Shown: positions 1 to 16,866 of the stretch, piece after piece | Numbering within the stretch: the first letter of the stretch is position 1 | Layout of the letters: every line of letters begins with the position of its first letter | NCBI GenBank assembly: GCA_035705945.1 | Contig: DASSVR010000025.1 | Coordinates: 11,508 to 75,507 of the forward strand | Direction: 5' to 3' | Length of the DNA: 64,000 bases | From: Solirubrobacterales bacterium | GTDB taxonomy: Bacteria > Actinomycetota > Thermoleophilia > Solirubrobacterales > 70-9 | Program-made: the position numbers and the translations under genes | The notes under the pieces: model-generated | The model's database searches: none | Seen by the model: only the letters and a program-made list of their open reading frames with translations | What the model was told of the DNA's origin: nothing

Positions 1-316
1 GGGCCAGCTCGTCGTCGCAGGCGACCAGGTTGGCGTCGCAGGCGGTGATCTCACGCTTCAACTGGTCGAGGCGGCCGCGCCCGAAGTAGCGGTCCGGGTC
101 GGGCTGCGATCGTTGCTGGGTCGCCACTCCGGCCGTTGCCACACCCGCCGTGCGCAGCAGCTCCTTCAGCTCCGCTAGCGGCTCGCCGTCCTCGTGCCCG
201 CCGACGATCCCGATCGCCAGCGCCCGCTGGCGGGCGCGTCGGCTCGCTGCCCCGGCACCGTTCACCGACCCCGCGTAGCGGGTCTGCCGCTGCCTGTCGT
301 TTCGCGAACCCTTCAC
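1..316 (-). CDS. hflX: GTPase HflX, N-terminal part only (gene continues past the left window edge)
   Basis: Hand translation of the minus strand from GTG at 316..314 gives VKGSRNDRQRQTRYAGS...RALAIGIVGGHEDGEPLAELKELLRTAGVATAGVATQQRSQPDPDRYFGRGRLDQLKREITACDANLVACDDELA. This is the typical HflX N-terminal domain pattern. It is absent from the ORF track because the window edge truncates it. The exact start is uncertain. Confidence 0.7.
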   Translation of the reverse strand, partial: MKGSRNDRQRQTRYAGSVNGAGAASRRARQRALAIGIVGGHEDGEPLAELKELLRTAGVATAGVATQQRSQPDPDRYFGRGRLDQLKREITACDANLVACDDELA

Positions 317-324
317 TCAGGGGA

Positions 325-330
325 ATTGTA
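325..330 (-). promoter_or_regulatory. -10-like hexamer TACAAT 8 nt upstream of the hflX GTG (leaderless-mRNA candidate)
   Basis: The minus strand reads TACAAT-TCCCCTGA-GTG and there is no Shine-Dalgarno sequence in between. Confidence 0.3.
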
Positions 331-363
331 TGCGGCGCTCCCCGCCCGTTAGGGTTGGGAGCC

Positions 364-1371
364 GTGAAGGTCTTCGTGACGGGAGGGACCGGCTTCATCG
401 GCGGCGAGGTCGCGCGCCAGCTGCGCGAGCGGGGTGACGAGGTCGTCTGCCTGGTCCGCAGCCCGGAGAAGGGCGAGCGCTTGACGCAGCTCAGCTGCGA
501 CCTCGTCGCGGGCGACCTCGGCGACGAGCGCGCGATCCGGCGGGGGCTCGAGGGGTGCGACGCCGTCATCCACGCCGCCGCCGTCTACGAGGTGGGTATC
601 CCCGCCTCGGAGCGCCAGGCGATGCGCGAGGCCAACGTCGGCGGCACCGAACGGGTGCTGGGAGCGGCGCTGGAGGCACGGGTTCCGAAGGTCGTCTACG
701 TCTCCACCGTCGGCGTCTTTGGCAACACCCACGGGCGCATCGTCGACGAGTCGTACGAGCACCCCGCCCAGGACTTCACCTCCGCCTACGAGGAAACGAA
801 GTGGGAGGCCCACCAGGTGGCGAAGCGGCTGATCGGCGAGGGCCTTCCCTGCGTGATCGCCCAGCCGGGTGGCGTCTACGGCCCCGGCGACACCTCCTCA
901 ATCGGCCGCCTGCTCGATCAGTACCTGTCCGGGAAAATGCCACTGGTGCCGTTCCCCGAGCTGGGGATCTGCCTCACCCACGTCGAAGACATCGCCGGCG
1001 GCATCCTGCTCGCCCTCGACAAGGGCACGCCCGGAGAGGCCTACGTGATCAGCGGCCCCACCACGACCGTACGGGAGGCGCTCACCGTCGTCGCCGGCCT
1101 GACCGGCCGCAAGCCACCGAAGCGGGCGCTGCCGACGCCGTTGCTGAAGGCGATGACCCCGATCGGCCCGCTGGTGGGCAAGGTGATGAACCAGCCTCCG
1201 AACCTCCGAGAGATGATCTCCTCGGCCGACGGCGTGACCTTCTGGGCTTCCTATGACAAGGCTCAAAAGGAGCTGGGATACGAACCACGGGGCCTCGAGG
1301 AGGGCCTGCGGGCACTGCTCATTGCGGAGGGTCGGATTTCTGCGAGCCCCACGGGTTACGGTAGGTCTTAA
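364..1371 (+). CDS. NAD-dependent epimerase/dehydratase (extended SDR family)
   Basis: ORF 136..1371 trimmed to the in-frame GTG at 364, so the N-terminus is VKVFVTGGTGFIGGEV (Rossmann GxxGxxG). A YEETK (YxxxK) catalytic motif is present. Confidence 0.8.
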   Translation: MKVFVTGGTGFIGGEVARQLRERGDEVVCLVRSPEKGERLTQLSCDLVAGDLGDERAIRRGLEGCDAVIHAAAVYEVGIPASERQAMREANVGGTERVLGAALEARVPKVVYVSTVGVFGNTHGRIVDESYEHPAQDFTSAYEETKWEAHQVAKRLIGEGLPCVIAQPGGVYGPGDTSSIGRLLDQYLSGKMPLVPFPELGICLTHVEDIAGGILLALDKGTPGEAYVISGPTTTVREALTVVAGLTGRKPPKRALPTPLLKAMTPIGPLVGKVMNQPPNLREMISSADGVTFWASYDKAQKELGYEPRGLEEGLRALLIAEGRISASPTGYGRS

Positions 1372-2220: not shown

Positions 2221-4881
2221 CTAGCAGGGCAAGCCGATCCGCGGCTTGCTCAGCTGCGTGCGCCCGTTCTGGGCGCGGAGGCGGATCTCGACGCGTGGTC
2301 TGACCTTGCAGAGGTTGCGGCTGTTTTCGATCAGGCCGCGTTTGCCGCCGAAGAGGTTCATCTGGAAGCTGGTGACGGGGGCATCGGGGAGGCCGAGGAA
2401 GCGGGTGCGGACCCTCGAGGTGCCTTTCTTCTGCACCGAGTCGATGAAGCCGACGAGGATGATCCGCAGCTGGCCGCGCAGGTCGGCGACGATGTCGGGT
2501 AGTTCGCGGGCGCCGCCGTTACTGCGGAAGTAGACGTTGCCGCTCAGCGGTTGGTCGAGCAGCGGGCTCTTCGCGGTGACCCTGCCGAGGATCGATTTCG
2601 GCGGGCAGGCCTCGGCCGCGAACTGCACCCGGGTGCAGGGGTTGTTGATGTGGGCGTTGTCGATGAACTGTGAGGCGGGCAGGCTCACGGTGGCGTGGGC
2701 GGTGTTGGCCTGGCCCGGTTTCTGGGTCAGCTTCGCCCGCACCGCCGGGTTGCCGGTGCGTTTGGTCGAGCCTTTGAAGGCGAGGCGCAGCTTCGGTTTG
2801 TAGGGGAGCTTGGCGCAGTCGCTGGCCCGGAAGACGCTTGAGGGCTCGGCGATCGCGCCGGTAGTGGCGGTGACCGTGGCGGTGATCTTCTTGGTGGCGC
2901 AGCTCGTCGGGTTGAGGGTGAATTCGGGGCGGTCGACCAGGACCCGGATCTCGCGGTAGGCGATCGGTACCCCTTCGAGGATCTGCGGCAGCGGATCGGT
3001 GGTGATCGTCGCCAGGGCGGTTTCGGGGTCGACGTTGATCGCGGCGCGGTTGACCACCACGCCGAGGTCGAAGGGTCCGGCCTGGGCGGGGACCACCGAG
3101 ACGACCGAGTAGGGCGCTCCTTTGTAGGGGCCGGCCAGGTAGGCGGTGGGGGTGGGCTTGCCGGGCTGCGGGATCCAGAGCGGCGCACCGCCCACGCCCG
3201 AGGAGGCGGCGAGGCTGCCGAGCCTGGAGCCGAGCGGGCAGGCGCCGGTGGCCGCCGCGACCTCGGGGCAGAGCTCCACCCCGGCGAGCTTCGCGAGGAG
3301 GCCCTTCGGCATGTGCAGGGCGATCGTCTGCGGGTTGGCTTCGCCGTCAGAGCGGGTCAGGGTGAAGGCGAAGGGGGTGTATTGGCCGCCGGAGGGGACG
3401 AGGCTGCCGGCGGCGAGCTGCGGGGAGAAGCCGCCCTTGCCGCAGCCCTGGGTGACGTGCAGCGGGGTCTGGCCTTCGAGCGGCGGGGTCCCCGACCAGG
3501 GGGTGAAGGAGTAGTCGATCAGGTAGGTGCCGCAGGCGGCCGGGGTGGCGATCGGCGCCCGCGGCCCGCCGAAGACGTTCAGCCGCAGCGCTGAGACCGG
3601 CACCTGGGGCAGGCCGCCGAGGGTTTCGATCCCGTCGAAGACGGTGGTGATCTGGCCGCTCAGCGGGTTTGCTTCGATCTCCGCCGGCAGCTTCAGGTGG
3701 ACGCCCTGGTCGTCGGCGACGACCCAGAAGCCGAAGAGGCGCCCGGGCTCTGGGGTGCGCTGGTAGACCGAGCCGTGCAGGGTCTCCTCGAGGGCCGGCA
3801 CCTCGGCTTCGATCGTGCCGATCTTCGCTGCATCGGGGCACTCGGCGGCGACGTTCTCGCCGAAGTGGACCTCTTCGGCCGAGCAGGCCTCGAGGCCGTC
3901 GGCGGCGGCGGGGTTGATCGAGAAGCCGGCCGGCAGGCTCACCCGGGCGCTCTTCAGGGTCGAGGTGGCGTTGCCCTGGGGGGATTCGTTCTGGGGGATC
4001 ACGAGTTCGGTGTCGATCCCCGTGGGGGCGGCGGCCTCGGGGTTGGTCAGATGGGCGCTGAAGGTGGGGGCGAATTTGACGTTGCCGCAGCCGGTGATCT
4101 GCGGGAAGGGGGCGCTCATCGTCGAGGGCTGATCGGGCAGCTGGTAGCTGCGGGCGGTGACCACGACTTCGCGTTTCAGGCTGCAGTCGGTCGGGTTGGA
4201 GATGAACGGGACTTCCGGCGTCGATACCGGTCTGCCGCCCGGCGGGGTTTCCCCGTTCACCACCTCCATCGGGGTGACCCGCTCTTCGTCGTGCTCGGAG
4301 GAGGCGGGGATCCCCCAGACCGTCGTCGTCGCTTCGGAGAGGCCGGTCACCGAGGGCAGGCTCTCGGCGGTGGCGATGACGCTGTAGTCGGTGGGGTCGA
4401 TGCGGACGTTGACGAAGGCCGGGTAGGCGCCGGCCATCAGGCCGAAGCGGGCGACGATGTCGGTGCCTTTCGGCGCCACCATGTTGTAGAAGGGCTCGTT
4501 GAAGACGAAGACGTAGGGCTGCAGGGTGCGCACCGCGGAGATCCCCACCTGGGACTCGAACGGGCAGGCGCTGGTTTCCGGCGCGGTGCCGAGCTGCTCG
4601 GCGGTGCAGCGGGGGATCGCCTGCGGGTTGCCGATCACCCCGGGCGGCAGCTCAATCTCGATGTCCTTGGCGGCGGCGTAGGGGCTGTTGCCTTTGCGGG
4701 TCAGGGCGACGCCGATCGTCATGTCGGCGTGGGCGCCGGCCTGTTTGTCGCTGAGGCTGACGAAGACCGATTCGATCGCGAATTTGTCGAATTCGTCTTC
4801 GCCCGAGGCGGGCGCGGCGAGGGCGGCGGCGAGGGCGAGCGCCGTGGCAGCGAGGACGGCGATCCGGCGCGCGGCGCTCAT
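2221..4881 (-). CDS. Large secreted protein, unknown function (886 aa)
   Basis: ORF 2221..5310 trimmed to the ATG at 4881 (MSAARRIAVLAATALALAAALAAPASGEDE, a signal peptide). This ATG overlaps the upstream stop as ATGA. The part of the ORF upstream of it is Arg-rich out-of-frame overlap with the preceding gene. Confidence 0.8.
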   Translation of the reverse strand: MSAARRIAVLAATALALAAALAAPASGEDEFDKFAIESVFVSLSDKQAGAHADMTIGVALTRKGNSPYAAAKDIEIELPPGVIGNPQAIPRCTAEQLGTAPETSACPFESQVGISAVRTLQPYVFVFNEPFYNMVAPKGTDIVARFGLMAGAYPAFVNVRIDPTDYSVIATAESLPSVTGLSEATTTVWGIPASSEHDEERVTPMEVVNGETPPGGRPVSTPEVPFISNPTDCSLKREVVVTARSYQLPDQPSTMSAPFPQITGCGNVKFAPTFSAHLTNPEAAAPTGIDTELVIPQNESPQGNATSTLKSARVSLPAGFSINPAAADGLEACSAEEVHFGENVAAECPDAAKIGTIEAEVPALEETLHGSVYQRTPEPGRLFGFWVVADDQGVHLKLPAEIEANPLSGQITTVFDGIETLGGLPQVPVSALRLNVFGGPRAPIATPAACGTYLIDYSFTPWSGTPPLEGQTPLHVTQGCGKGGFSPQLAAGSLVPSGGQYTPFAFTLTRSDGEANPQTIALHMPKGLLAKLAGVELCPEVAAATGACPLGSRLGSLAASSGVGGAPLWIPQPGKPTPTAYLAGPYKGAPYSVVSVVPAQAGPFDLGVVVNRAAINVDPETALATITTDPLPQILEGVPIAYREIRVLVDRPEFTLNPTSCATKKITATVTATTGAIAEPSSVFRASDCAKLPYKPKLRLAFKGSTKRTGNPAVRAKLTQKPGQANTAHATVSLPASQFIDNAHINNPCTRVQFAAEACPPKSILGRVTAKSPLLDQPLSGNVYFRSNGGARELPDIVADLRGQLRIILVGFIDSVQKKGTSRVRTRFLGLPDAPVTSFQMNLFGGKRGLIENSRNLCKVRPRVEIRLRAQNGRTQLSKPRIGLPC

Positions 4882-7800
4882 CGGCGGCCCCCCTGCGCTC
4901 GGCGCTGGCGTGGTTTGTGTTTTTTGACGCAGATGACCTTGCCGGCGCGTTTGACCTTGCGCTTGCCCTTGCCGCAGCGCTTGGGTTTGGGACTCGGCTT
5001 GGCGCCCAGCGCGAGGGTCTGCACCGCGAAGGGCGCCGGCGGCGGGCTCATCCCCGGGCGGCAGCCTTCGCCCGCGCATTCTTCTTTCACCGCTTCGGCG
5101 AAGCCGCCGCCGACCCGGGCGTCGTAGATCGAGGGCGTCGCGTCGACGTCTGAGCCGGTCAGGAGCTCGGCGCTGAAGAAGAAGACGTCCTCGCCCGTCG
5201 GGCTCACCGCCCAGAGGAATTCGTTGCGAAGGCTCTGGGGGGAGGAGATCAGGTAGAGGCAGCCCTCGGGTGCCGGCGGAGCGCAGCTGCCGACGCCCTC
5301 GGCCTCCCACTCATAGACGTCCTTGAAGCCGTCTGAGTCGCCGCCGACCAGGGGCTCGCTCGACTCGAAGAAGGCGCGCTGGCCGTCGGCGCGCAGGTTC
5401 TCGATCCAGGCCTGCGAGAAGGAGAGGGGGATGTTTTCCTCCCGTCTTTCGGTCTGCAGGGTCGCGTCTTCGTTAGGCGGGGCGCCGGTCGGGTTGCAGG
5501 AGAGGCACCAAAGCTCCCCGGCGGCGGAGTCGTAGCGGTAGATCTGCGCTTTTTCGGCGGGGTCGTAGTCGCTCAGCTGGGCGCGTGATTTGAACAGGAG
5601 GACGCTGCCGTCGGCGCTGGCGCGGGCGGGGACCTTGCCGAAGCGCCCGGGGAACTGGGGGTTTGCGGCATCGACCCAGAGGCCGAGCCCGTCGACGGTT
5701 TCGATCCCCGAGAGGACTTCCCCTTCGACGTCGCGGTCGGTGAGCGTGGCGACGAAGCTGACCTGCCCCTCCTCGGAGAGGTAGAGGTTCTGCGCCGCGG
5801 CCTGGGGTTCGTCGCCCTCGGGGTTGGGGCCCGATCCCGAGATCGCGGTCTCCGAGACGAAGTAGGCGGCTGACCCCCCCTGGGCGAGGAAGACCGGGAC
5901 GGCGTCGCCCGTTTCGCTGAACTCGATCACTTCCTCGCTGCTCGCGTCGAAGGCCTTCAGGTCGCCGTCTTCATCGACATAGAGGATCCGCCCGCCGCCT
6001 TCGGCGAGGCCGGCGTAGGTGATCCCTTCGCCGATCTCGAAGGTCTCTTCGTTTTGGTAGCGCAGGTAGAGCGTCGTGCCGACTTTGAAGGCGACGAGCT
6101 CGCCGTCGAGCGAGGCGCCCATGTAGAAGGCGTCTTCGCCGGCGCCGAGGGGGACCTCGCCGGGCAGCAGCGAGACCACCTTGGTTTCCCGTTCGCCGGC
6201 TTCGGGGCCGGGGACGCGGTCATAGATCGCGATCGTGCCGTCCGGCGCGGCGGTGGGCTCGAGCTGGATCGCCGGCGTGTTGCCGCCCGAGGTGAAGACG
6301 ATGTGGCCGCCGCCCCCTGAGATCAGCCGGCCCACCGCCCGGGGGTCGGTGCCGAGGCTGCCCTGGCCGATCAGCTCCGAGTGGCCGTCGGGGAAGCGCA
6401 CGTAGTTGGTCGGCTCCCCTCCCACCACCGCCGTGCCCGCCACCTCCGCGACCCAGAAGCTGTGGCCCTGGTCGGGCGAGCCGGTGCCGGCGATCACCGA
6501 TTTCGCCTCGGCGCCGGTGGGGCCGATGTAGGTGGTCTGCCAGCCCGCTTCGGTGCGGGTCGAGAGGTAGGGGTCGCCGAGGAAGGAGCCGGTGCCGGGG
6601 AAGCCCGGGATCGAGCCACCCTCGACCTTGAACGGCACCGCTTCGCCCCCCGGGGAGACCTGGCGGATCGTGAAGGAGTTGATCTCGCGGGTGGTGCCGA
6701 TCGGCGCCCGGCCGTTGGTGTCGGGCGGCGTCACCAGCTCATAGGCGCGGCAGTCGGGCAGAAGCGCCGAGAGGCCGGTGCGCAGCAGCGGGTTCGGGCA
6801 GAATTCCGGCGGCTCGACGGGGAAGCTCGGGTAGGTGGCGAAGCCCGCCTGGGCTTCGTCGTCCCCCAGAGAGTTCTCGGCGAAGACCCGGAAGCGGTAG
6901 CTCCTCCCCGCTTCGAGGCCCGTCAGCGCCGCCGAGACCTCGAGGTCGAGGTTGCCGGCCGGGAGCGTCCCTTCGCCGGCGAGCGTCGCCCCTTCGAAGG
7001 GGTCTTTGGCTTCTTCTTCGTTTTGCGCCGCCAGCTGGGCGGTGATGTAGTGGAGGGTGTAGGTGGTTTCGAGGTTGCGGGGGTTGACCTTGGCCACCAG
7101 TTCGGCTTCGGTTTCGCTGACGTTGGTGGCTTCGGGCGCTTTCACCTCCGGCTCGTCTTCGGTGACTTCCTCGAAGGCGAAGGAGTGGCCGGTCCCGGTT
7201 TTGTGGGAGGGGACGTAGAGGTTGCCCTTGCTCAGGCTGGTGGACCCGTTGTCGACCCCGATCTGCGCCCCGATCTCCCCGTCGAAGCCGCCTTGGATTT
7301 TGATCTCCGTCACGAATTCGCCGTCGGCGGTGAACTCGTAGAGTTTCTTGTTTTCCGTGTCGTGGGCGAACAGGTGGCCAGTGTTTTCGTCCACTGCCAG
7401 CGAGATGAAGTTGCCGATGTCTTCCCCCGGCAGCGCCGACTCTTCGATCGTGTCGACTTTTTCGTATTCGCCCGGCGGCGGCCCCACCACGCTCGTCAGG
7501 TCGAAGATGTCGATCCGCCTGATTTCGAGACCGCCCGGTTCGAAGCTCGCGTAGAGCCGGCCGCGTGAATCGTCCACCGCCACCCCGACGCCCCGCGCCA
7601 GAGCCGTTCGGACTTTTACGTTCCCTTCGGCGGCGGAGGTGTACTCGGTCACACCATCGCCCCTGGAGTTGACGAACAGGTGGTCGTTATCGGCGTTGAT
7701 CGCCAAGGCGGACGGTCGCTGGCCCGGGTCGGGGGCGAAGGCCACCGGATCGCTGCAGTATTCGATGTTGCCGGCTTCCGGTTCGTAGGGAGCGCACGGC

Positions 7801-8348
7801 GTGTAGCGGAGGATTTCCTTGCCGGGTGAAATGAAGACCCCGGCATATAGAACACCCTGGCTATCGACCGCGAGCGACATCGGGCCGAAGTTGAACGGGG
7901 CGTCGAGCACGATCTCCTCGATGAAGAGGCCGGACGGGTCGAAGATGTCGATCCGCCCTTGCGTGCCTTCGTCGTTTTTCCCGAAGACGCCGACGTAGAT
8001 GTTGCCGTGGAAGTCGGTGGCCACCGCCCTCGGGTCGTCGAACTTTTCGAGAGGATGATCGACCCCCGCCACCCCGGGCGGAATTGGACACAGCCCGGGG
8101 TCGGGGACTTCGTCGATCGCCGAGGTGCTGCAGTCGCCGGTCAGAGAGAGTTCCGGGTCGAAGACGCGTTCGCCTTCCGCCGCCAGCGCGGTCGGAACAG
8201 CCATGACCGCAAGCACGAGCCCGACCGCAAAGGTCCAGCGCAGGATGAAAGAACTTCTCCCGCCGCTCTTGCCTATCGCGTCCCGATTCAATGTAAGCCC
8301 CCCAATGATTCGTTCCCTGATAAGACCTCTGCTATTCCTCGTCAGCAC
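4878..8348 (-). CDS. Very large secreted multi-domain protein with NHL-like propeller, FN3-like module, PD40/TolB-like propeller and a Cys-containing polybasic tail
   Basis: The 1156-aa ORF has an N-terminal hydrophobic segment (FAVGLVLAVMAVPTALAAEGE). It contains repeated DxxGNIYV / VDSQGVLYA / VDDSRGRLYA-type blades, then an FN3-like stretch (GLEAGRSYRFRVFAENSLG), then DVYEWE / SIYDAR PD40-like motifs. The annotated start is GTG 8348. An alternative TTG at 8291 is preceded by GGGGGG. Confidence 0.75.
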   Translation of the reverse strand: MLTRNSRGLIRERIIGGLTLNRDAIGKSGGRSSFILRWTFAVGLVLAVMAVPTALAAEGERVFDPELSLTGDCSTSAIDEVPDPGLCPIPPGVAGVDHPLEKFDDPRAVATDFHGNIYVGVFGKNDEGTQGRIDIFDPSGLFIEEIVLDAPFNFGPMSLAVDSQGVLYAGVFISPGKEILRYTPCAPYEPEAGNIEYCSDPVAFAPDPGQRPSALAINADNDHLFVNSRGDGVTEYTSAAEGNVKVRTALARGVGVAVDDSRGRLYASFEPGGLEIRRIDIFDLTSVVGPPPGEYEKVDTIEESALPGEDIGNFISLAVDENTGHLFAHDTENKKLYEFTADGEFVTEIKIQGGFDGEIGAQIGVDNGSTSLSKGNLYVPSHKTGTGHSFAFEEVTEDEPEVKAPEATNVSETEAELVAKVNPRNLETTYTLHYITAQLAAQNEEEAKDPFEGATLAGEGTLPAGNLDLEVSAALTGLEAGRSYRFRVFAENSLGDDEAQAGFATYPSFPVEPPEFCPNPLLRTGLSALLPDCRAYELVTPPDTNGRAPIGTTREINSFTIRQVSPGGEAVPFKVEGGSIPGFPGTGSFLGDPYLSTRTEAGWQTTYIGPTGAEAKSVIAGTGSPDQGHSFWVAEVAGTAVVGGEPTNYVRFPDGHSELIGQGSLGTDPRAVGRLISGGGGHIVFTSGGNTPAIQLEPTAAPDGTIAIYDRVPGPEAGERETKVVSLLPGEVPLGAGEDAFYMGASLDGELVAFKVGTTLYLRYQNEETFEIGEGITYAGLAEGGGRILYVDEDGDLKAFDASSEEVIEFSETGDAVPVFLAQGGSAAYFVSETAISGSGPNPEGDEPQAAAQNLYLSEEGQVSFVATLTDRDVEGEVLSGIETVDGLGLWVDAANPQFPGRFGKVPARASADGSVLLFKSRAQLSDYDPAEKAQIYRYDSAAGELWCLSCNPTGAPPNEDATLQTERREENIPLSFSQAWIENLRADGQRAFFESSEPLVGGDSDGFKDVYEWEAEGVGSCAPPAPEGCLYLISSPQSLRNEFLWAVSPTGEDVFFFSAELLTGSDVDATPSIYDARVGGGFAEAVKEECAGEGCRPGMSPPPAPFAVQTLALGAKPSPKPKRCGKGKRKVKRAGKVICVKKHKPRQRRAQGGRR

Positions 8349-9419: not shown

Positions 9420-10262
9420 ATGAGCACCCGTCCTGGTTACGCATCGCGCGGCTGCGCTTGCCTGGCCGCTTTGGCCCTAGCCGCAGCGGTGGTTTCGTGC
9501 GGAGGCGGCGACGACCCGCAGGAACTCGACTACACCGCCGAAGCGGCGGGCAAAGCCGTAAGGATCGCGGCACCCGAGCAGGCCGAGGCGGGGCTTGCGG
9601 AGATCACCTTTAACAACGACAGCGATTCCGAAGCCGACCTGCAGCTGATCCGGGTCGAGGGCGATCGCACCCCGGAGGAAGTGGTCAAAGGCCTCGGAGA
9701 AGCGATTCGGGGCAAAGCCTTCCCTGACTGGCTCTTCGCCGCCGGTGGAGTCGGCTCTTTGGGCCCGGGCGAGACCGCCACGGTGGAGCAGGTGCTGCAG
9801 CCTGGCGACTACTACGCCTTCAACACCGAAGGCGGCCCGCCGGCAGCGAAATCGGCTGCAACGACCGAAGTGACCGGCGAGAAGTCCGACACGGAGATTG
9901 GGGAAGGCGATGGCGCCGTCGAGGCCGCCGAGTACGTCTTCAACGCCGACACCCTCCCCTCCGGTGAAGTCGAGATCGCTTTCGACAACATCGGCGTCCA
10001 GCCCCACCACCTGATCGCCTCGAAGATCAAAGGCGATGGCACCGTCGAGGAAGTCGAAGCGGCCTTCAAGGAAGAAAAAGGCCCGCCGCCGCTGATTGAA
10101 AAAGGCACGCAGGCGACCGCGGTCCTCGAAGGCGGCGAAGGCCAGTTGGTCACGCTAGATCTCGAGCCCGGCCGCTACGCCCTCTACTGCTTCATCACTG
10201 ATCGCCAGGGCGGCCCCCCGCACGCGCTGAAAGGGATGGTCGACGAAGTCGAGGTGGAGTAG
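9420..10262 (+). CDS. Lipoprotein with two cupredoxin-like halves
   Basis: The RBS is GGGGAGG. The signal plus lipobox is ALAAAVVSC-GGG. The second half carries candidate type-1 Cu ligands (PHH ... YALYCFITDRQGGPPHALKGM). Confidence 0.55.
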   Translation: MSTRPGYASRGCACLAALALAAAVVSCGGGDDPQELDYTAEAAGKAVRIAAPEQAEAGLAEITFNNDSDSEADLQLIRVEGDRTPEEVVKGLGEAIRGKAFPDWLFAAGGVGSLGPGETATVEQVLQPGDYYAFNTEGGPPAAKSAATTEVTGEKSDTEIGEGDGAVEAAEYVFNADTLPSGEVEIAFDNIGVQPHHLIASKIKGDGTVEEVEAAFKEEKGPPPLIEKGTQATAVLEGGEGQLVTLDLEPGRYALYCFITDRQGGPPHALKGMVDEVEVE

Positions 10263-10265
10263 ACC

Positions 10266-11435
10266 TCAGGCGAGGTGCTCGCGCATGCGCTCGACGGCCT
10301 CTTCGATGCGGTCGTCGGGCGCAGTCAGGGCGATGCGGAAGAAGCCCTCGCCGCTCGGCCCGTACATCGAGCCAGGCGAGATGACGACAGCTGCCTCCTC
10401 GAGGACGAGCTCGCAGAAGGAAGTCGAGGTGTGACCCTCGGGGACGGGAGCCCAGACGTAGATCGTGCCTTTCGGCGTCGCCACCTCGACGCCGATCTCG
10501 CGCAGGGCGGAGACGACGCGGTCGCGACGGCGGGCGTAGGTCTGGTTCATCCGCTCAAGCGGACCGCCTGGGCCCTCGAGAGCGGCGACGCCCGCCATCT
10601 GGATCGCCTCGAAAAGCCCGGAGTCGACGTTGGTCTTGAGGCGCCAGTAGGTCTGGATCGCTTCGGCGTTGCCGAGGATCGCCGCGCAGCGCCAGCCAGT
10701 CATGTTGTAGCCCTTGGAGAGGGAGAAGACCTCGACGCCAACCTCCTTCGCCCCTGGGGTGGCGAGGAAGCTCGGAGCGACGTAGCCGTCGTAGGTGGTC
10801 TCCGAGTAGGCGTTGTCGTGGACGACGAGGATTTCGTGCTCGCGGGCGAAGGAGACGACCATCTCGAAGAACCCGTCCGGGACGATCGCGCCGGTCGGGT
10901 TGTTCGGGTAGTTGACGAACATCAGCCGCGCCTTCGCGGCGACGTCGGCCGGGACGGCGCTGAGGTCGGGGGCGAAACCGAGTTCGGGGACGAGCGGCAG
11001 CAGCTCGGCCCTGGCGCCGGCGAGGATCGGGCCGCCGGTGTAGACGGGGTAGCCGGGATCGGAGGCGAGGGCGACGTCACCAGGGTCGAGGAAGGCGAAG
11101 CAGAGGTTGTAGATGCACTCCTTGGCGCCGATCGCCGGGATCACCTCGGACTTGGCGTCGATCTCGACCCCGAAACGGCGCCCGTAGAACTCGGCGAACG
11201 CCTGTCGGAACTCGTCGCGGCCGCGGTTGCTCGGGTACTGGTGGTAGGCCGAGTCGGCGACCGCCGCCTGCATCGCCTTGACCACGTGCGGATAGGTCGG
11301 TTCGTCGGGGTCGCCGATCCCGAGGCTGATCACGTCGATCCCGGCGGCGCGCTTGTCGGCGATTTGCTGCTCGAGTTCCTGGAACTTGTACGGCGGAATG
11401 GCCTCGAGGCGCTTGGATGGGGCGGCGATACCCAT
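10266..11435 (-). CDS. dapL: LL-diaminopimelate aminotransferase (class I/II aminotransferase)
   Basis: The N-terminus is KRLEAIPPYKFQELEQQIADKRAAGIDVISLGIGDPDEPT and the PLP-lysine motif is SLSKGYNMTGWR. The gene is adjacent to dapF. Confidence 0.7.
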   Translation of the reverse strand: MGIAAPSKRLEAIPPYKFQELEQQIADKRAAGIDVISLGIGDPDEPTYPHVVKAMQAAVADSAYHQYPSNRGRDEFRQAFAEFYGRRFGVEIDAKSEVIPAIGAKECIYNLCFAFLDPGDVALASDPGYPVYTGGPILAGARAELLPLVPELGFAPDLSAVPADVAAKARLMFVNYPNNPTGAIVPDGFFEMVVSFAREHEILVVHDNAYSETTYDGYVAPSFLATPGAKEVGVEVFSLSKGYNMTGWRCAAILGNAEAIQTYWRLKTNVDSGLFEAIQMAGVAALEGPGGPLERMNQTYARRRDRVVSALREIGVEVATPKGTIYVWAPVPEGHTSTSFCELVLEEAAVVISPGSMYGPSGEGFFRIALTAPDDRIEEAVERMREHLA

Positions 11436-11464: not shown

Positions 11465-12313
11465 CTACTCGCCGTCCAGCTCGGTGAGCGCCTGAACCAG
11501 CTCCGGCGAGAGCTCACCGCGGAAGACCGGCTCCGCCCAGCCGTCGAGCCGCACCCCCAGGTCCTCGGAGATCTCGACCTGCAGCTCCCCCCCTTCGAGC
11601 TCGACGACGATCGGGCTGGGGGCGCCGCGCAGGTAGGCGGTTACGGCGGCGCCGCTGGCGCCGGTGCCGGAGGAGAGCGTCTCCCCCACCCCGCGCTCGA
11701 AGATCCGCGCCCGCACCCGGCTGCCGTCGATCGCCAGGAAGGAGACGTTGGTCCGGTTCGGGAAGAGCTGGTGGCCTTCGATGCCGGGGCCGATCTCGCC
11801 GAGGTCGAGCTCATCGAGCTCCTCGCCGACGACGATCGCGCACTGCGGGTTGCCGATCGAGACGTGCTGGAACTCCCACTCACGTCCGGCGGCCTCGAGC
11901 GTGCCGCGGCCGTCCTCGCCGCCGGAGGGAAAGTCTTTCGAGCTCGTCGAGGCCCGCCCCATGTCGACCGAGCAGGTCAGCTCGCCGGTGATCGTCGGCC
12001 GGATCGGCCCGGCGACGGTGCCGATCGCGAACTCGTCCTCCTCCGTCCAGCCGTTCCGCCGCAGGAAGAGGATCGCCTCGCGGGCTCCGTTGCCGGAGAG
12101 CTCTGCCTCGGAGCCGTCCGGGTTGAAGATCCGCAGCTCCGCGACCAGCTCCGGGTCCTCGCTGCGGGAGAGCAGCAGGATCCCGTCGGAGCCGACCCCG
12201 AAGTGCTGGTCGCAGAGCCACTCGACTCGAGTCGGCGTCAACTCCCATGGCAGGAGCTCAGACTCGATGATCAGGTAGTCGTTGCCGAGGGCCTGCCACT
12301 TCTCGAATTTCAC
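11465..12313 (-). CDS. dapF: Diaminopimelate epimerase family protein with both catalytic Cys positions occupied by Ser
   Basis: MKFEKWQALGNDYLII, IFNPDGSEAELSGNGAR and FERGVGETLSSGTGA align residue-for-residue with the DapF signatures, except for Cys->Ser at both active-site positions. Confidence 0.8.
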   Translation of the reverse strand: MKFEKWQALGNDYLIIESELLPWELTPTRVEWLCDQHFGVGSDGILLLSRSEDPELVAELRIFNPDGSEAELSGNGAREAILFLRRNGWTEEDEFAIGTVAGPIRPTITGELTCSVDMGRASTSSKDFPSGGEDGRGTLEAAGREWEFQHVSIGNPQCAIVVGEELDELDLGEIGPGIEGHQLFPNRTNVSFLAIDGSRVRARIFERGVGETLSSGTGASGAAVTAYLRGAPSPIVVELEGGELQVEISEDLGVRLDGWAEPVFRGELSPELVQALTELDGE

Positions 12314-13047
12314 GGGCCGGACCCTATCCCGATGAGCAACCGCTCGGCGACCTCTTCGTCGGTGAGGTCAGCGCGGTCGATCAGACGGAGGTTCGGGAGC
12401 TTGCGCATCCAGGTCAGCTGGCGGCGGGCGTAGTTGCGGGAGCGCTTCTTCATCGTCTCCAGGTCGCCGGCGAGGAGCTCGTCGAAGCCGAGGGCTTTGC
12501 GGGCGGTGCGGCCGGGGCCGAGGGCGTCGGCACGGCGGGCCTCCTCGGCGGCGCCGGCGGCGACGATCGCCTCGACCCGGGCGTCGATCCGCTCGTAAAG
12601 CTGCTCGCGGTCCATGTCTAGGCCGAAGATCGTGGTCGGGTGCCGGGTCTCGGGCGACCAGAGCTCGGAATCCTCGGTTTCGGGGGGAACCTTGTTCAGC
12701 GACAGCTCGGCCAGCGCCGCGCGCAAGTAGAGCCCGGTCCCGCCGACGACGATCGGCCTCCTCCCCGCTGCCAGCGCCGCGTCGATCTCGCGGTGGGCGA
12801 GCGGCATGTAGTCGCCGACCGAGAAATCCTCGGTGACCGGCACAAACCCCAGCAGCCGATGCTCGAGGCGTTCCTGCTCCTCCGCGGTAGCGGCGCCCGT
12901 CAGTGCCTCCAGCCCCTCGTACACCTGGAGCGCGTCGCAGTTGATCGCGATCGGGTCCTGCCCCCGCTTCCGCAGCAGCTCCGCCAGCGCGATCGCCACC
13001 CCGGTCTTGCCGACCCCGGTCGGGCCGAAGATGGCGATTACGTTCAA
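12310..13047 (-). CDS. miaA: tRNA dimethylallyltransferase (short form)
   Basis: The P-loop is IFGPTGVGKTG and GGTGLYLRA is present. There is a 4-nt overlap with both neighbours. Confidence 0.85.
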   Translation of the reverse strand: MNVIAIFGPTGVGKTGVAIALAELLRKRGQDPIAINCDALQVYEGLEALTGAATAEEQERLEHRLLGFVPVTEDFSVGDYMPLAHREIDAALAAGRRPIVVGGTGLYLRAALAELSLNKVPPETEDSELWSPETRHPTTIFGLDMDREQLYERIDARVEAIVAAGAAEEARRADALGPGRTARKALGFDELLAGDLETMKKRSRNYARRQLTWMRKLPNLRLIDRADLTDEEVAERLLIGIGSGP

Positions 13048-14369
13048 AGAAGTGGGGTGAGGGGGCGCGTCAGGACCCCGCTCAGCGTCTGCGAAGTCGC
13101 CGCTTCGATCTCGACGGGGACGACCTCGCCCGCCTCCGCGATCCCGTCGAAGTTGACCGCCTTGCCGTGGCGGGTGCGCCCGCGCAACCTAGTCTCGTCG
13201 GTGCGGCTGGTGCCTTCGACGAGTACGTCGAGCGTCCGCCCGACGAAGCGCTGGGCACGCTCCGCGGCTCGGCGCTGGACGACCTCGACGAGGCGTTCCA
13301 GGCGCTCCACCTTGACCGGATGCGGCAGCTGCCCGTCCATCGTCGCCGCCTCAGTTTCCCGCCGCGGCGAGAAGATGAAAGTGAAGGCGCCGTCGTAGCC
13401 GACCTCCTCGACCACCTCCATGGTCTCCTCGAAATCGGCCTCGGTCTCGCCGGGGAAGCCGACGATGACGTCCGTGGTGATCGCGCAGTCTGGAACGTGC
13501 TCGCGGATCAGCGCCACCCGGTCCAGGTAGCGCCGGCGGTCGTAGGTCCGGCGCATCCGTTTGAGGATGGTGTTGGAGCCCGACTGCAGCGGCAGGTGGA
13601 TCTGCTCGCAGAGGGCCGGCAGCTCGGCGTGCGCGCGGATCACATCCTCCTTCATGTCCTTCGGGTGGGGACTGGTGTAGCGGATGCGCTCGATCCCCTC
13701 GATCGCGTCGACCCGTCGCAGCAGATCCGCGAAACCGATTCGCTTCTCCAACGACAGGTCGCGTCCGTAGCTGTTGACGTTCTGCCCGAGCAGCGTCACC
13801 TCGCGGACGCCGTCGGCGGCAAGAGCCTCCGCCTCGGCGATCAGCTCGTCGGGGTCCCGGCTCACCTCGCGACCGCGGGTTGAGGGGACGATGCAGTAGG
13901 AGCAGACGCAGTTGCAGCCCTGGGAGACCTGCAGCCAGCCCTGGAACTCGCGCTCGCGGCGGGTCGGCAGGTGGCCGGAGAAGTCCTCGAACTCGAAATA
14001 GCCCTGGGCGGTGATCGAATCGGAATTGAGGAACTCGGCCAGCTTGTGGATCTGCCCCGGCCCGAAGGCGACGTCGACGAAGGGGAAGCGCTGGAAGACC
14101 TCCTCCTTGACCGATTGCGCCCAGCAGCCGCCGACGCCGACGACCCGCGCTGGGTCTTCTGACTTAAGCCTCTTCGCTTGCCCGAGGTGGGCGATGAACC
14201 GGCTGTCCGCCGACTCGCGGATCGAGCAGGTGTTGAAGAGGATCAGGTCAGCTTCGTCGCGCTCTGCTGCCTCCTCGTAGCCGAGCGAGGCCAGCATCCC
14301 CCGCATCCGCTCGGAGTCGTGCACGTTCATCTGACACCCGAAGGTGGTGACGTGGAACTTCTGCGCCAT
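13044..14369 (-). CDS. miaB: tRNA-2-methylthio-N6-dimethylallyladenosine synthase (radical SAM methylthiotransferase)
   Basis: The N-terminus is FHVTTFGCQMNVHDSE, the radical-SAM motif is GCNCVCSYCIVP, and there is a C-terminal TRAM-like region. Confidence 0.9.
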   Translation of the reverse strand: MAQKFHVTTFGCQMNVHDSERMRGMLASLGYEEAAERDEADLILFNTCSIRESADSRFIAHLGQAKRLKSEDPARVVGVGGCWAQSVKEEVFQRFPFVDVAFGPGQIHKLAEFLNSDSITAQGYFEFEDFSGHLPTRREREFQGWLQVSQGCNCVCSYCIVPSTRGREVSRDPDELIAEAEALAADGVREVTLLGQNVNSYGRDLSLEKRIGFADLLRRVDAIEGIERIRYTSPHPKDMKEDVIRAHAELPALCEQIHLPLQSGSNTILKRMRRTYDRRRYLDRVALIREHVPDCAITTDVIVGFPGETEADFEETMEVVEEVGYDGAFTFIFSPRRETEAATMDGQLPHPVKVERLERLVEVVQRRAAERAQRFVGRTLDVLVEGTSRTDETRLRGRTRHGKAVNFDGIAEAGEVVPVEIEAATSQTLSGVLTRPLTPLL

Positions 14370-14480: not shown

Positions 14481-15065
14481 CTACTCGACGGTGAGCGTGC
14501 CTTCCATGCCCGCTTGGGCATGCCCCGGGACGGTGCAGAGGAAGGTGTAGGTGCCGGCCTCCAGCTCGGCGGAGACCGACTCACTGCTTTCGCTGATCAC
14601 CGCCGTGCCGGCGATTTCCTCACCGTCTTTCTCGATCACCGCGTTGTGCGGGATCGCGGACGGGTTGTCGAAGTCGATCGTGACTTTGCCTGGCTTCGCA
14701 CTCAGCTCGGTCGTGTCGAAGGCGATTGCCGCCGGGTCGGCGGCGAGCTGCAGGGTCGTGGCGCCTTCTTCGGCCTCCTCGGGTTCGCCGCCGGGGGCTC
14801 CCCCTTCTTCTTCGTGAGGCTGTTCCTCGGCCTCTTCGATGTGTTCACCGGCCTCGTGGAGCTCGGCGGCGTGCGCCTCCTCGTGTTCCTTCGCCTGGAG
14901 GACCGAGTAGGTGGTGGCGCCGCCGACCAGGACGACGAACCAGAGGACGATCACGGGGAATGCCCGCCCCGGGAAGTTCTTCAGCTTCAGGCCGGCGAAG
15001 GTGAGGACCACGGCCGAGACGGCCAGGGCGATCCCGAGGATGTAGAAGACAGTCTCGTCGCTCAT
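14481..15065 (-). CDS. Membrane-anchored cupredoxin (plastocyanin/azurin-like)
   Basis: There are two N-terminal TM helices and an acidic linker. The C-terminal Cu site is PHNAV ... FLCTVPGHAQAGMEG. Confidence 0.75.
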   Translation of the reverse strand: MSDETVFYILGIALAVSAVVLTFAGLKLKNFPGRAFPVIVLWFVVLVGGATTYSVLQAKEHEEAHAAELHEAGEHIEEAEEQPHEEEGGAPGGEPEEAEEGATTLQLAADPAAIAFDTTELSAKPGKVTIDFDNPSAIPHNAVIEKDGEEIAGTAVISESSESVSAELEAGTYTFLCTVPGHAQAGMEGTLTVE

Positions 15066-15122: not shown

Positions 15123-16217
15123 CTACGCCGCCTTCGCCTCGGCCGCCGGCGCGGCGCTCTCAGGCTCGGCGGCAGGCGCCGCGGGAGCCTCGCCGTCGAT
15201 CCCCAAGGCGGCCCTGACCCTGGTTTCTATCTCCAGGGCCAACTCCGGGTTGTCGACCAGGAACTGTTTGGCGTTGTTGCGCCCCTGGCCGAGACGGGTC
15301 TCACCATAGGAGAAGAAGGAGCCGGATTTCTGGACAAGGTCCTGCTCCATCCCAAAGTCGAGCAGCCCGCCCTCGCGGGAGATCCCGACCCCGTACTCGA
15401 TGTCGAACTCGGCCTGGCGGAAGGGCGCGGCGACCTTGTTCTTGACCACTTTGACCCTGACCCGGTTGCCGACCGCCTCGGTGCCTTCCTTCAGGGTCTC
15501 GATCCGGCGGATGTCGAGCCGCTGCGAGGAGTAGAACTTCAGCGCCCGCCCGCCCGGCTGGGTCTCCGGCGAGCCGAACTGGACGCCGACTTTTTCGCGG
15601 ATCTGGTTGGTGAACAGGCAGACCGTCTTCGTCCGGTTCAGGCTCCCGGCCAGTTTCCGCAGCGCCTGCGACATCAGCCGCGCCTGCAGGCCGACGGTGG
15701 TGTCGCCGATCTGGCCGTCGAGCTCTGCTTTCGGCGTCAGCGCTGCGACCGAGTCGATCGCGACCACGTCGACCGCCGCCGAGGCGATCAGCCGGTCGGC
15801 GATCTGCAGCGCCTGCTCGCCGTAGTCGGGCTGGGAGACGAGCAACTCGTCGGTGTCGACGCCTATCGCCCGCGCGTACACGGGGTCGATCGCGTGCTCG
15901 GTGTCGATGAAGGCGCAGACGCCGCCCAGCGCCTGGGCCTGGGCGATGATGTGGTTGATCAGCGTCGTCTTGCCCGAGGACTCGGGGCCGAAGATCTCGA
16001 CGATGCGCCCGCGCGGCACGCCGCCGATCCCCAGGGCCAGGTCGAGCGCCAAGGCACCGGTCGGGATCGCGTCGACCTTGACCGTCCCTTTGTCGCCGAG
16101 GCGCATCAGGGATCCCTGGCCGAAGTCGCGCTCGATCTGCGTCACCGCGGCCTCGAGAGCCGCGTCCTTCGCCTTCGCCTCTTTCGCCGAGGCCTCTTTC
16201 AAGTTCACTTTCGACAT
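15123..16217 (-). CDS. recA: Recombinase RecA
   Basis: ORF trimmed to [10 protein letters not shown]. Walker A is GPESSGKTT, and [15 protein letters not shown] is present. Confidence 0.95.
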
Positions 16218-16227
16218 CTCGATCACC

Positions 16228-16866
16228 TCACTGCCGCCCTGCTCCGGGCAGCTCGACTTGGGCCAGGGGTACGTACTGCGCACCCGTCGGCTTGAGTTCA
16301 GAACGGTAAAGCGTCATCCGGCGGCAAATCCGTGCCTCCGAGAGGGTCTCCGGCAGCTTCCCCGGAGGCTCGCCGACGACCGCCGGCCGCCTCGATCCAC
16401 GGGCCTCGGAGCGAATCCGAGCCACCGTCACATGCGGCCAGAACGGCCGCTTCTCCGGCTCGTAGAAGCCCTCCTCGGCAAGGCGCCGCCCAACCCCCGC
16501 CTGCAGGGCCTCCGTCCCGGGCGACAGCGCCGGCAAGGCGTAAATCCGCGCCCTGCCCCGCGGCGGCCTCTGCACCGGGTCGAGCAGCTCGACCCAGGGC
16601 GCCGGGCCGGCGAATCCACGCACCGCCTCGGCGATCCGGCCGATCTCCTTCTCCGGCCGGTAGCCGAGGAAGGCGAGGGTGATGTGGAGCGACTCCGGCG
16701 CCACCGGGCGCAAGGCGGGATCGGCCAGCGCCTCCCGCCCCCACGCCACGATCCCCTCCCGCACCTCGTCGGGAAGATCGAGCGCTACGAACAGGCGCGC
16801 CCGCGGGCTTTTCAGTCGCTCCTTTGCCACGGCCGCCACGCTACGGGGCCGGAACGCGCGAAACAA
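16228..16866 (-). CDS. thpR: RNA 2',3'-cyclic phosphodiesterase (2H phosphoesterase, LigT/ThpR)
   Basis: There are two HxT motifs ([10 protein letters not shown] and PHVTVARI). The start is uncertain, because TTG at 16866 is only the ORF maximum. Confidence 0.75.

Follow-up and report, generated by a model that had tools for sequence, protein, structure and literature searches.

The window analysed here, a 64,000-nucleotide stretch of DNA from a Solirubrobacterales bacterium, a placement (class Thermoleophilia, Actinomycetota) that the names of close homologues also give, carries a run of four genes lying head-to-tail on the minus strand. The run begins with miaB (13044..14369), encoding a radical-SAM methylthiotransferase (PF00919, PF04055 and PF01938), and continues with miaA for a tRNA isopentenyltransferase (12310..13047; PF01715), dapF for a Ser/Ser diaminopimelate (DAP) epimerase (11465..12313) and dapL for LL-diaminopimelate aminotransferase (10266..11435), whose product scored 536 bits against NF006756 (cut-off 507) and matched PF00155. 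The dapF reading frame is intact, starts with GTG and encodes 282 amino acids; its start overlaps the miaA stop by 4 nt, and 29 nt separate its stop from the dapL start. recA (15123..16283) lies upstream of the operon. The miaA-dapF position is one that the window has in common with other Actinomycetota. The sequence-only reading had placed the gene in an hflX/dapF/miaA neighbourhood next to dapL; the adjacency to miaA and dapL held, but hflX is about 11 kb off, straddling the window start (G000:C25:10675-11697; window coordinates up to ~190). The usual dapF-hflX adjacency is broken by two partly overlapping long open reading frames between dapL and hflX (2221..5310 and 4878..8348, both on the minus strand; 1029 and 1156 aa), which gave no significant Pfam match and one sub-threshold SdiA-regulated match. 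Two further neighbours end alike: a 194-aa membrane-anchored protein encoded between miaB and recA (14481..15065, minus strand) has a cupredoxin-like C..H..M ending (CTVPGHAQAGMEG), and a 280-aa lipoprotein encoded beside dapL (9420..10262, plus strand) has a similar C-terminal motif (YCFITDRQGGPPHALKGM) and no Pfam match.

Against TIGR00652, the equivalog model for DapF (cut-off 114.65 bits), the dapF product scored 191.5 bits with an alignment running from profile position 1 to 268 of 270, and it matched PF01678 with 130 bits in two domains, which makes it a full-length DapF by the curated equivalog score. The phmmer alignments to three solved DapFs (cyanobacterial 9mro, A. baumannii 5ha4 and Arabidopsis 3ejx) set SEAELSGNGAR of the window DapF over SEPEMCGNGIR, and GETLSSGTGA over G.TLACGTGA. 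As judged from these alignments, serines occupy both catalytic cysteine positions, because the flanking motifs align unambiguously with those of the solved enzymes. Ser73 (codon TCC, 12095..12097) takes the first position, that of Cys73 in the H. influenzae and E. coli DapFs, and Ser215 (codon TCC, 11669..11671) the second, that of Cys217; the textbook Cys/Cys pair is thus lacking. The sequence-only reading had named both replacements: the alignments verified them, the two codon positions proved exact on a minus-strand count from 12313, and the profile scores and alignments bore out its view of an orthologous DapF at a conserved locus whose signature is otherwise unbroken.

Three other cysteines, C34, C114 and C158, had been proposed as possible active-site residues, and none turned out to be a specific replacement. 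Cys/Cys DapFs conserve C34 to the same degree, Ala stands in for C114 in 2 of 17 Solirubrobacterales sequences, and the cysteine of the GNPxC motif (C158) is shared by many canonical DapFs and missing from the Ser/Ser enzymes of family f9.

The AlphaFold2 model of the window DapF, built from a 37-sequence alignment, reached a mean pLDDT of 96.2 and a pTM of 0.92 and shows the two-domain pseudo-symmetric DapF fold. In this model, Ser73 directly precedes helix 74-86 and Ser215 directly precedes helix 216-228, so that each of the two central helices is predicted to have a serine at its N-terminus, as is the DapF arrangement. A Foldseek search of the PDB returned DapFs as all of its top matches, with TM scores of 0.82-0.87 normalised to the query (8qzy, 4ijz, 9mro). 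Apart from the catalytic pair and the His of GNPH, every residue of the known binding motifs with a conservation of 80% or more among Cys/Cys DapFs is retained: N11, N64, D66, G67, G74, N75, G76, R78, N155, P156, N189, E206, R207, G208, T212 and G216. The DAP-binding motifs GND, FNxDGSE, GNG.R, GNP, R.N and ERG.GET are present; the His of GNPH is not, its place being taken by Gln157 (codon CAG, 11843..11845). Compared with the canonical Cys/Cys DapFs (EC 5.1.1.7; 9mro, 4ijz, 1gqz, 5ha4, 3fve), the window DapF is 35-45% identical and alike in its two-domain fold and binding motifs, but differs in both catalytic residues and in Gln157. A sequence search of the PDB found no solved natural Ser/Ser DapF, just the engineered H. 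influenzae C73S and C217S enzymes (2q9h and 2q9j), which are also structural neighbours of our model (Foldseek ranks 5 and 9). Those enzymes likewise have Ser at a catalytic position of the DapF site, but each carries a single laboratory change in a Cys-adapted enzyme, whereas the window DapF has both serines, evolved order-wide. Our literature searches on the C73S/C217S DapFs found nothing.

Both serines are fixed well beyond this one genome. A dapF orthologue is present in 39 of 41 related genomes, at 59-90% identity, and the survey of orthologues that the sequence-only reading had called for gave Ser/Ser in all 29 that were extracted, at 60-90% identity and from six families of Solirubrobacterales. 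In these 29 the motifs PDGSEAELSGNG and ET(L/M)(S/A)SGTGA are almost invariant, while the codons vary: Ser73 is written TCC, TCG or AGC, and Ser215 TCC, TCG or TCT. Such synonymous turnover among genomes points to purifying selection for serine. Both serines are also carried by metagenomic proteins that number in the thousands and are 79-93% identical to the window DapF.

Nearly every Solirubrobacterales genome searched has a single DapF-family match. A PF01678 search of the window's own genome (96% complete, 105 contigs) found no Cys/Cys paralogue, which removes the suggestion that a canonical dapF elsewhere has left the window copy to decay. The same search did find one further DapF-like gene, on contig C43 (2,025 bp). 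This gene (L003:1332-2024, minus strand) encodes 230 aa with the N-terminus at the contig end, is itself Ser/Ser (EMSGNGTR / ETASSGSS) and adjoins a transposase-like open reading frame (191..1246). In the FastTree phylogeny its product groups with the DapFs of family f9 of the same class, and C43 is for that reason probably a mis-binned contig or a horizontally transferred copy.

The pathway context suggests that these bacteria need meso-DAP and the enzyme that makes it. LysA is encoded in the same genome (TIGR01048, 435 bits), and so is a MurE with the DNPR motif, a hallmark of MurE enzymes that add DAP. Since DapL delivers the LL form of DAP, the pathway cannot do without an epimerase. The same requirement follows from the cell walls, because all cultured Solirubrobacterales have meso-DAP as their diagnostic wall diamino acid (PMC3035278), and a new species of Solirubrobacter bore this out (PMC10722151). 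A supply of meso-DAP through meso-DAP dehydrogenase (Ddh, TIGR01921) was considered and rejected: a search of the window's own genome (96% complete) did not find the enzyme, and among 61 Solirubrobacterales genomes, each at least 90% complete, it exceeded the cut-off in one. That single genome (G112, C63:7029-8000), which belongs to the same family as the window genome, has a 450-bit Ddh beside a Ser/Ser DapF. The window DapF is the only DapF-family candidate for the required epimerase. Proteins of the alanine-racemase fold in the genome comprise Alr, YggS, a YhfX-like protein and one further weak PF01168 protein. The YhfX-like PLP enzyme (L037:1108-2439, minus strand, on G000:C41) combines PF01168 (Ala_racemase_N) with PF21279 (YhfX-like_C) and has no NCBIfam name.

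Whether two serines can sustain this reaction has been addressed in the literature. As related in PMC13728532, natural DapFs with two catalytic serines and the same fold work as epimerases (Lamer, van Belkum, Chen et al. 2025, J Mol Biol 437:169375, PMID 40774471), and replacing Ser by Cys inactivated the Ser/Ser enzyme of Anabaena sp. YBS01. According to the same account, that strain pairs a Cys/Cys DapF with a Ser/Ser one, possibly to withstand oxidative stress. The work of Lamer et al., as it is presented there, removes the premise of necessarily poor Ser/Ser catalysis and makes the window dapF a further member of an already described kind. The Solirubrobacterales enzyme resembles the reported ones in its DapF fold and in having naturally fixed Ser at both catalytic positions, and the reaction, LL-DAP to meso-DAP, is presumably alike. 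One difference lies in copy number: in Anabaena sp. YBS01, as described, the Ser/Ser copy stands beside a Cys/Cys one, whereas nearly every Solirubrobacterales genome searched has no other DapF. The working enzymes reported through PMC13728532 supersede the earlier expectation of very weak racemase catalysis by a Ser/Ser pair, and with it the step from there to a different role, a different enzyme or an acceptance of LL-DAP; cultured Solirubrobacterales, moreover, all have meso-DAP walls (PMC3035278). The suggestion of a different chemistry survives just insofar as Ser hydroxyls replace thiols in the same reaction.

Ser/Ser DapFs are also widespread elsewhere. Among the best 150 representatives of 50%-identity clusters, 56 were Ser/Ser and 25 Cys/Cys. 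A second, large Ser/Ser clade, about 40% identical to the window DapF and marked by the motifs EAEKSGNGLRIF and YTLASGSS, spans at least 595 species-level genomes; its hosts include Methylomirabilota, Dadabacteria, Thermodesulfobacteriota, Bacteroidales and Nitrospira, as well as Verrucomicrobiota, Chloroflexota, Myxococcota and others, and the best 80 genome loci of the clade included no cyanobacterium. In four of five genomes tested from other phyla, the Ser/Ser DapF of this clade is the sole DapF. Clostridium sp. LS (G117; L172 and L177) has two TIGR00652 matches, one of them of the Ser/Ser type; the pair may recall the Anabaena case. Within Thermoleophilia, families f7, f8, f10 and f12 are Cys/Cys, f9 and f13 are Ser/Ser, and f11 is mostly Cys/Cys, with Ser/Cys hybrids in its genus g30. 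The g30 hybrids (L046, L049, L050, L052, L056) have Ser at the first position (AGT, AGC or TCC) and Cys at the second. Each is the lone DapF match of its genome, and together they are nested inside a Cys/Cys clade with 98% support; they are possible intermediates of the Cys-to-Ser change. P0247 is another Ser/Cys representative.

In the FastTree phylogeny of 125 sequences, the Ser/Ser proteins fall into about five groups with weak deep branches, and the Solirubrobacterales sequences do not group with the large Ser/Ser clade that spans many phyla, again across weak deep branches. The tree as drawn needs five changes to Ser/Ser, while its well-supported branches force one, so that a single origin is compatible with it. 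Column-by-column comparison revealed substitutions particular to the order. Gln157 is present in all 17 Solirubrobacterales-type sequences; the GNPH His is kept in all of the tabulated Cys/Cys (55/55) and Ser/Cys (6/6) DapFs and in the Ser/Ser DapFs of the other two clades (37/37). Position 191 is Ser in the Solirubrobacterales clade, as opposed to Glu in Cys/Cys and Gln in other Ser/Ser DapFs, and three further replacements, of Trp205 by Phe, Ala221 by Gly and Pro259 by Trp, are likewise confined to this clade. The window DapF's own second-shell set of Ser191, Phe205, Gly221 and Trp259 thus differs both from Cys/Cys DapFs and from the other Ser/Ser clades. Because the second shell differs and the clade stands apart, activity is not simply transferable from the characterised Ser/Ser enzyme. 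It is even conceivable, though we hold it only tentatively and think it rather doubtful, that the Solirubrobacterales DapF represents an independently evolved and mechanistically distinct form of thiol-free DAP epimerisation, in which case the Ser/Cys hybrids would be living Cys-to-Ser intermediates.

Taking the above together, we consider it likely, with good confidence, that the window dapF encodes a functional thiol-free Ser/Ser DAP epimerase, the housekeeping DapF of this bacterium. What we observed is its family membership, fold, serine positions, retained residues, conservation, sole-copy status and pathway context; the activity of natural Ser/Ser DapFs comes from the literature (as related in PMC13728532), and from all this we infer that the enzyme of the Solirubrobacterales lineage is active and that Ser73 and Ser215 act as its acid/base pair. 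The predicted enzyme would keep the normal two-base DapF architecture, with the hydroxyls of Ser73 and Ser215 replacing the Cys thiols at the helix N-termini. The adjacent DapL would make LL-DAP, DapF would convert it to meso-DAP, and meso-DAP would pass to LysA for lysine and to MurE for peptidoglycan.

An improbable alternative is that the window DapF is dead or very weak and kept for a non-catalytic role, for example as an RppH partner, while another racemase makes meso-DAP. The E. coli DapF does moonlight with RppH independently of catalysis (PMC13728532), and the missing His157 makes the window protein catalytically odder still. E. coli without dapF still grows, on a side activity, so meso-DAP could in principle come from a weak alternative racemase, and the PLP-dependent DapF2 of Staphylococcus, an Alr-type enzyme, complements an E. 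coli dapF mutant (both PMC13759103). Besides Alr and YggS, the YhfX-like enzyme (G000:C41) and the weak PF01168 protein are the only visible candidates for such a racemase in the window's own genome. However, these extra PF01168 proteins match no NCBIfam racemase model, and an equivalent of DapF2 was not identified among them. A dispensable active site also sits poorly with substrate-binding motifs that are all conserved under strong purifying selection, with a gene translationally coupled in its operon directly upstream of dapL, and with natural Ser/Ser DapFs being reported as active (Lamer et al. 2025, via PMC13728532).

It is less probable still, indeed very unlikely, that the protein is a DapF-fold enzyme with a changed substrate or reaction, whether another amino-acid racemase, a dehydratase or an isomerase. 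The fold has precedents for such change in O-ureidoserine racemase, histidine racemase, PddB and PhzF; the O-ureidoserine racemase 7vdy is among the structural matches of the window DapF, histidine racemase (PMC11602996) and PddB (PMC8225329) attest to repeated diversification, and both the catalytic residues and position 157 are unlike those of canonical DapF. Against this, the TIGR00652 score lies well above the equivalog cut-off, and the distal-site residues that recognise DAP (N64, N155, N189 and E206/R207) are kept. The gene moreover occupies the conserved actinobacterial miaA-dapF position adjoining dapL, and DapF of this type is the lone DapF in genomes that need meso-DAP. Finally, the idea that errors in sequencing or assembly produced the serines, with TGC to be expected at both codons on resequencing, or that they mark a decaying paralogue or pseudogene, has nothing in its favour beyond the rarity of Ser/Ser in textbook enzymes and can be given practically no weight, since the same residues recur in 29 independent genomes, the frame of the window gene is intact, its AlphaFold2 confidence is high, and the differing synonymous Ser codons exclude an assembly artefact.

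A functional Ser/Ser enzyme at this locus would mean that the thiol-free DapF of 2025 is not a second-copy curiosity, being the only predicted DAP epimerase of a very abundant soil actinobacterial order with meso-DAP walls. Thiol-alkylating DapF inhibitors, such as aziridino-DAP and similar compounds, would probably not act on Ser/Ser enzymes, and annotation rules that demand the Cys pair would miscall them inactive. The order-specific His-to-Gln change, together with the Ser/Cys hybrids of a sister family, offers natural variants for asking what gives a serine the basicity to deprotonate C-alpha.
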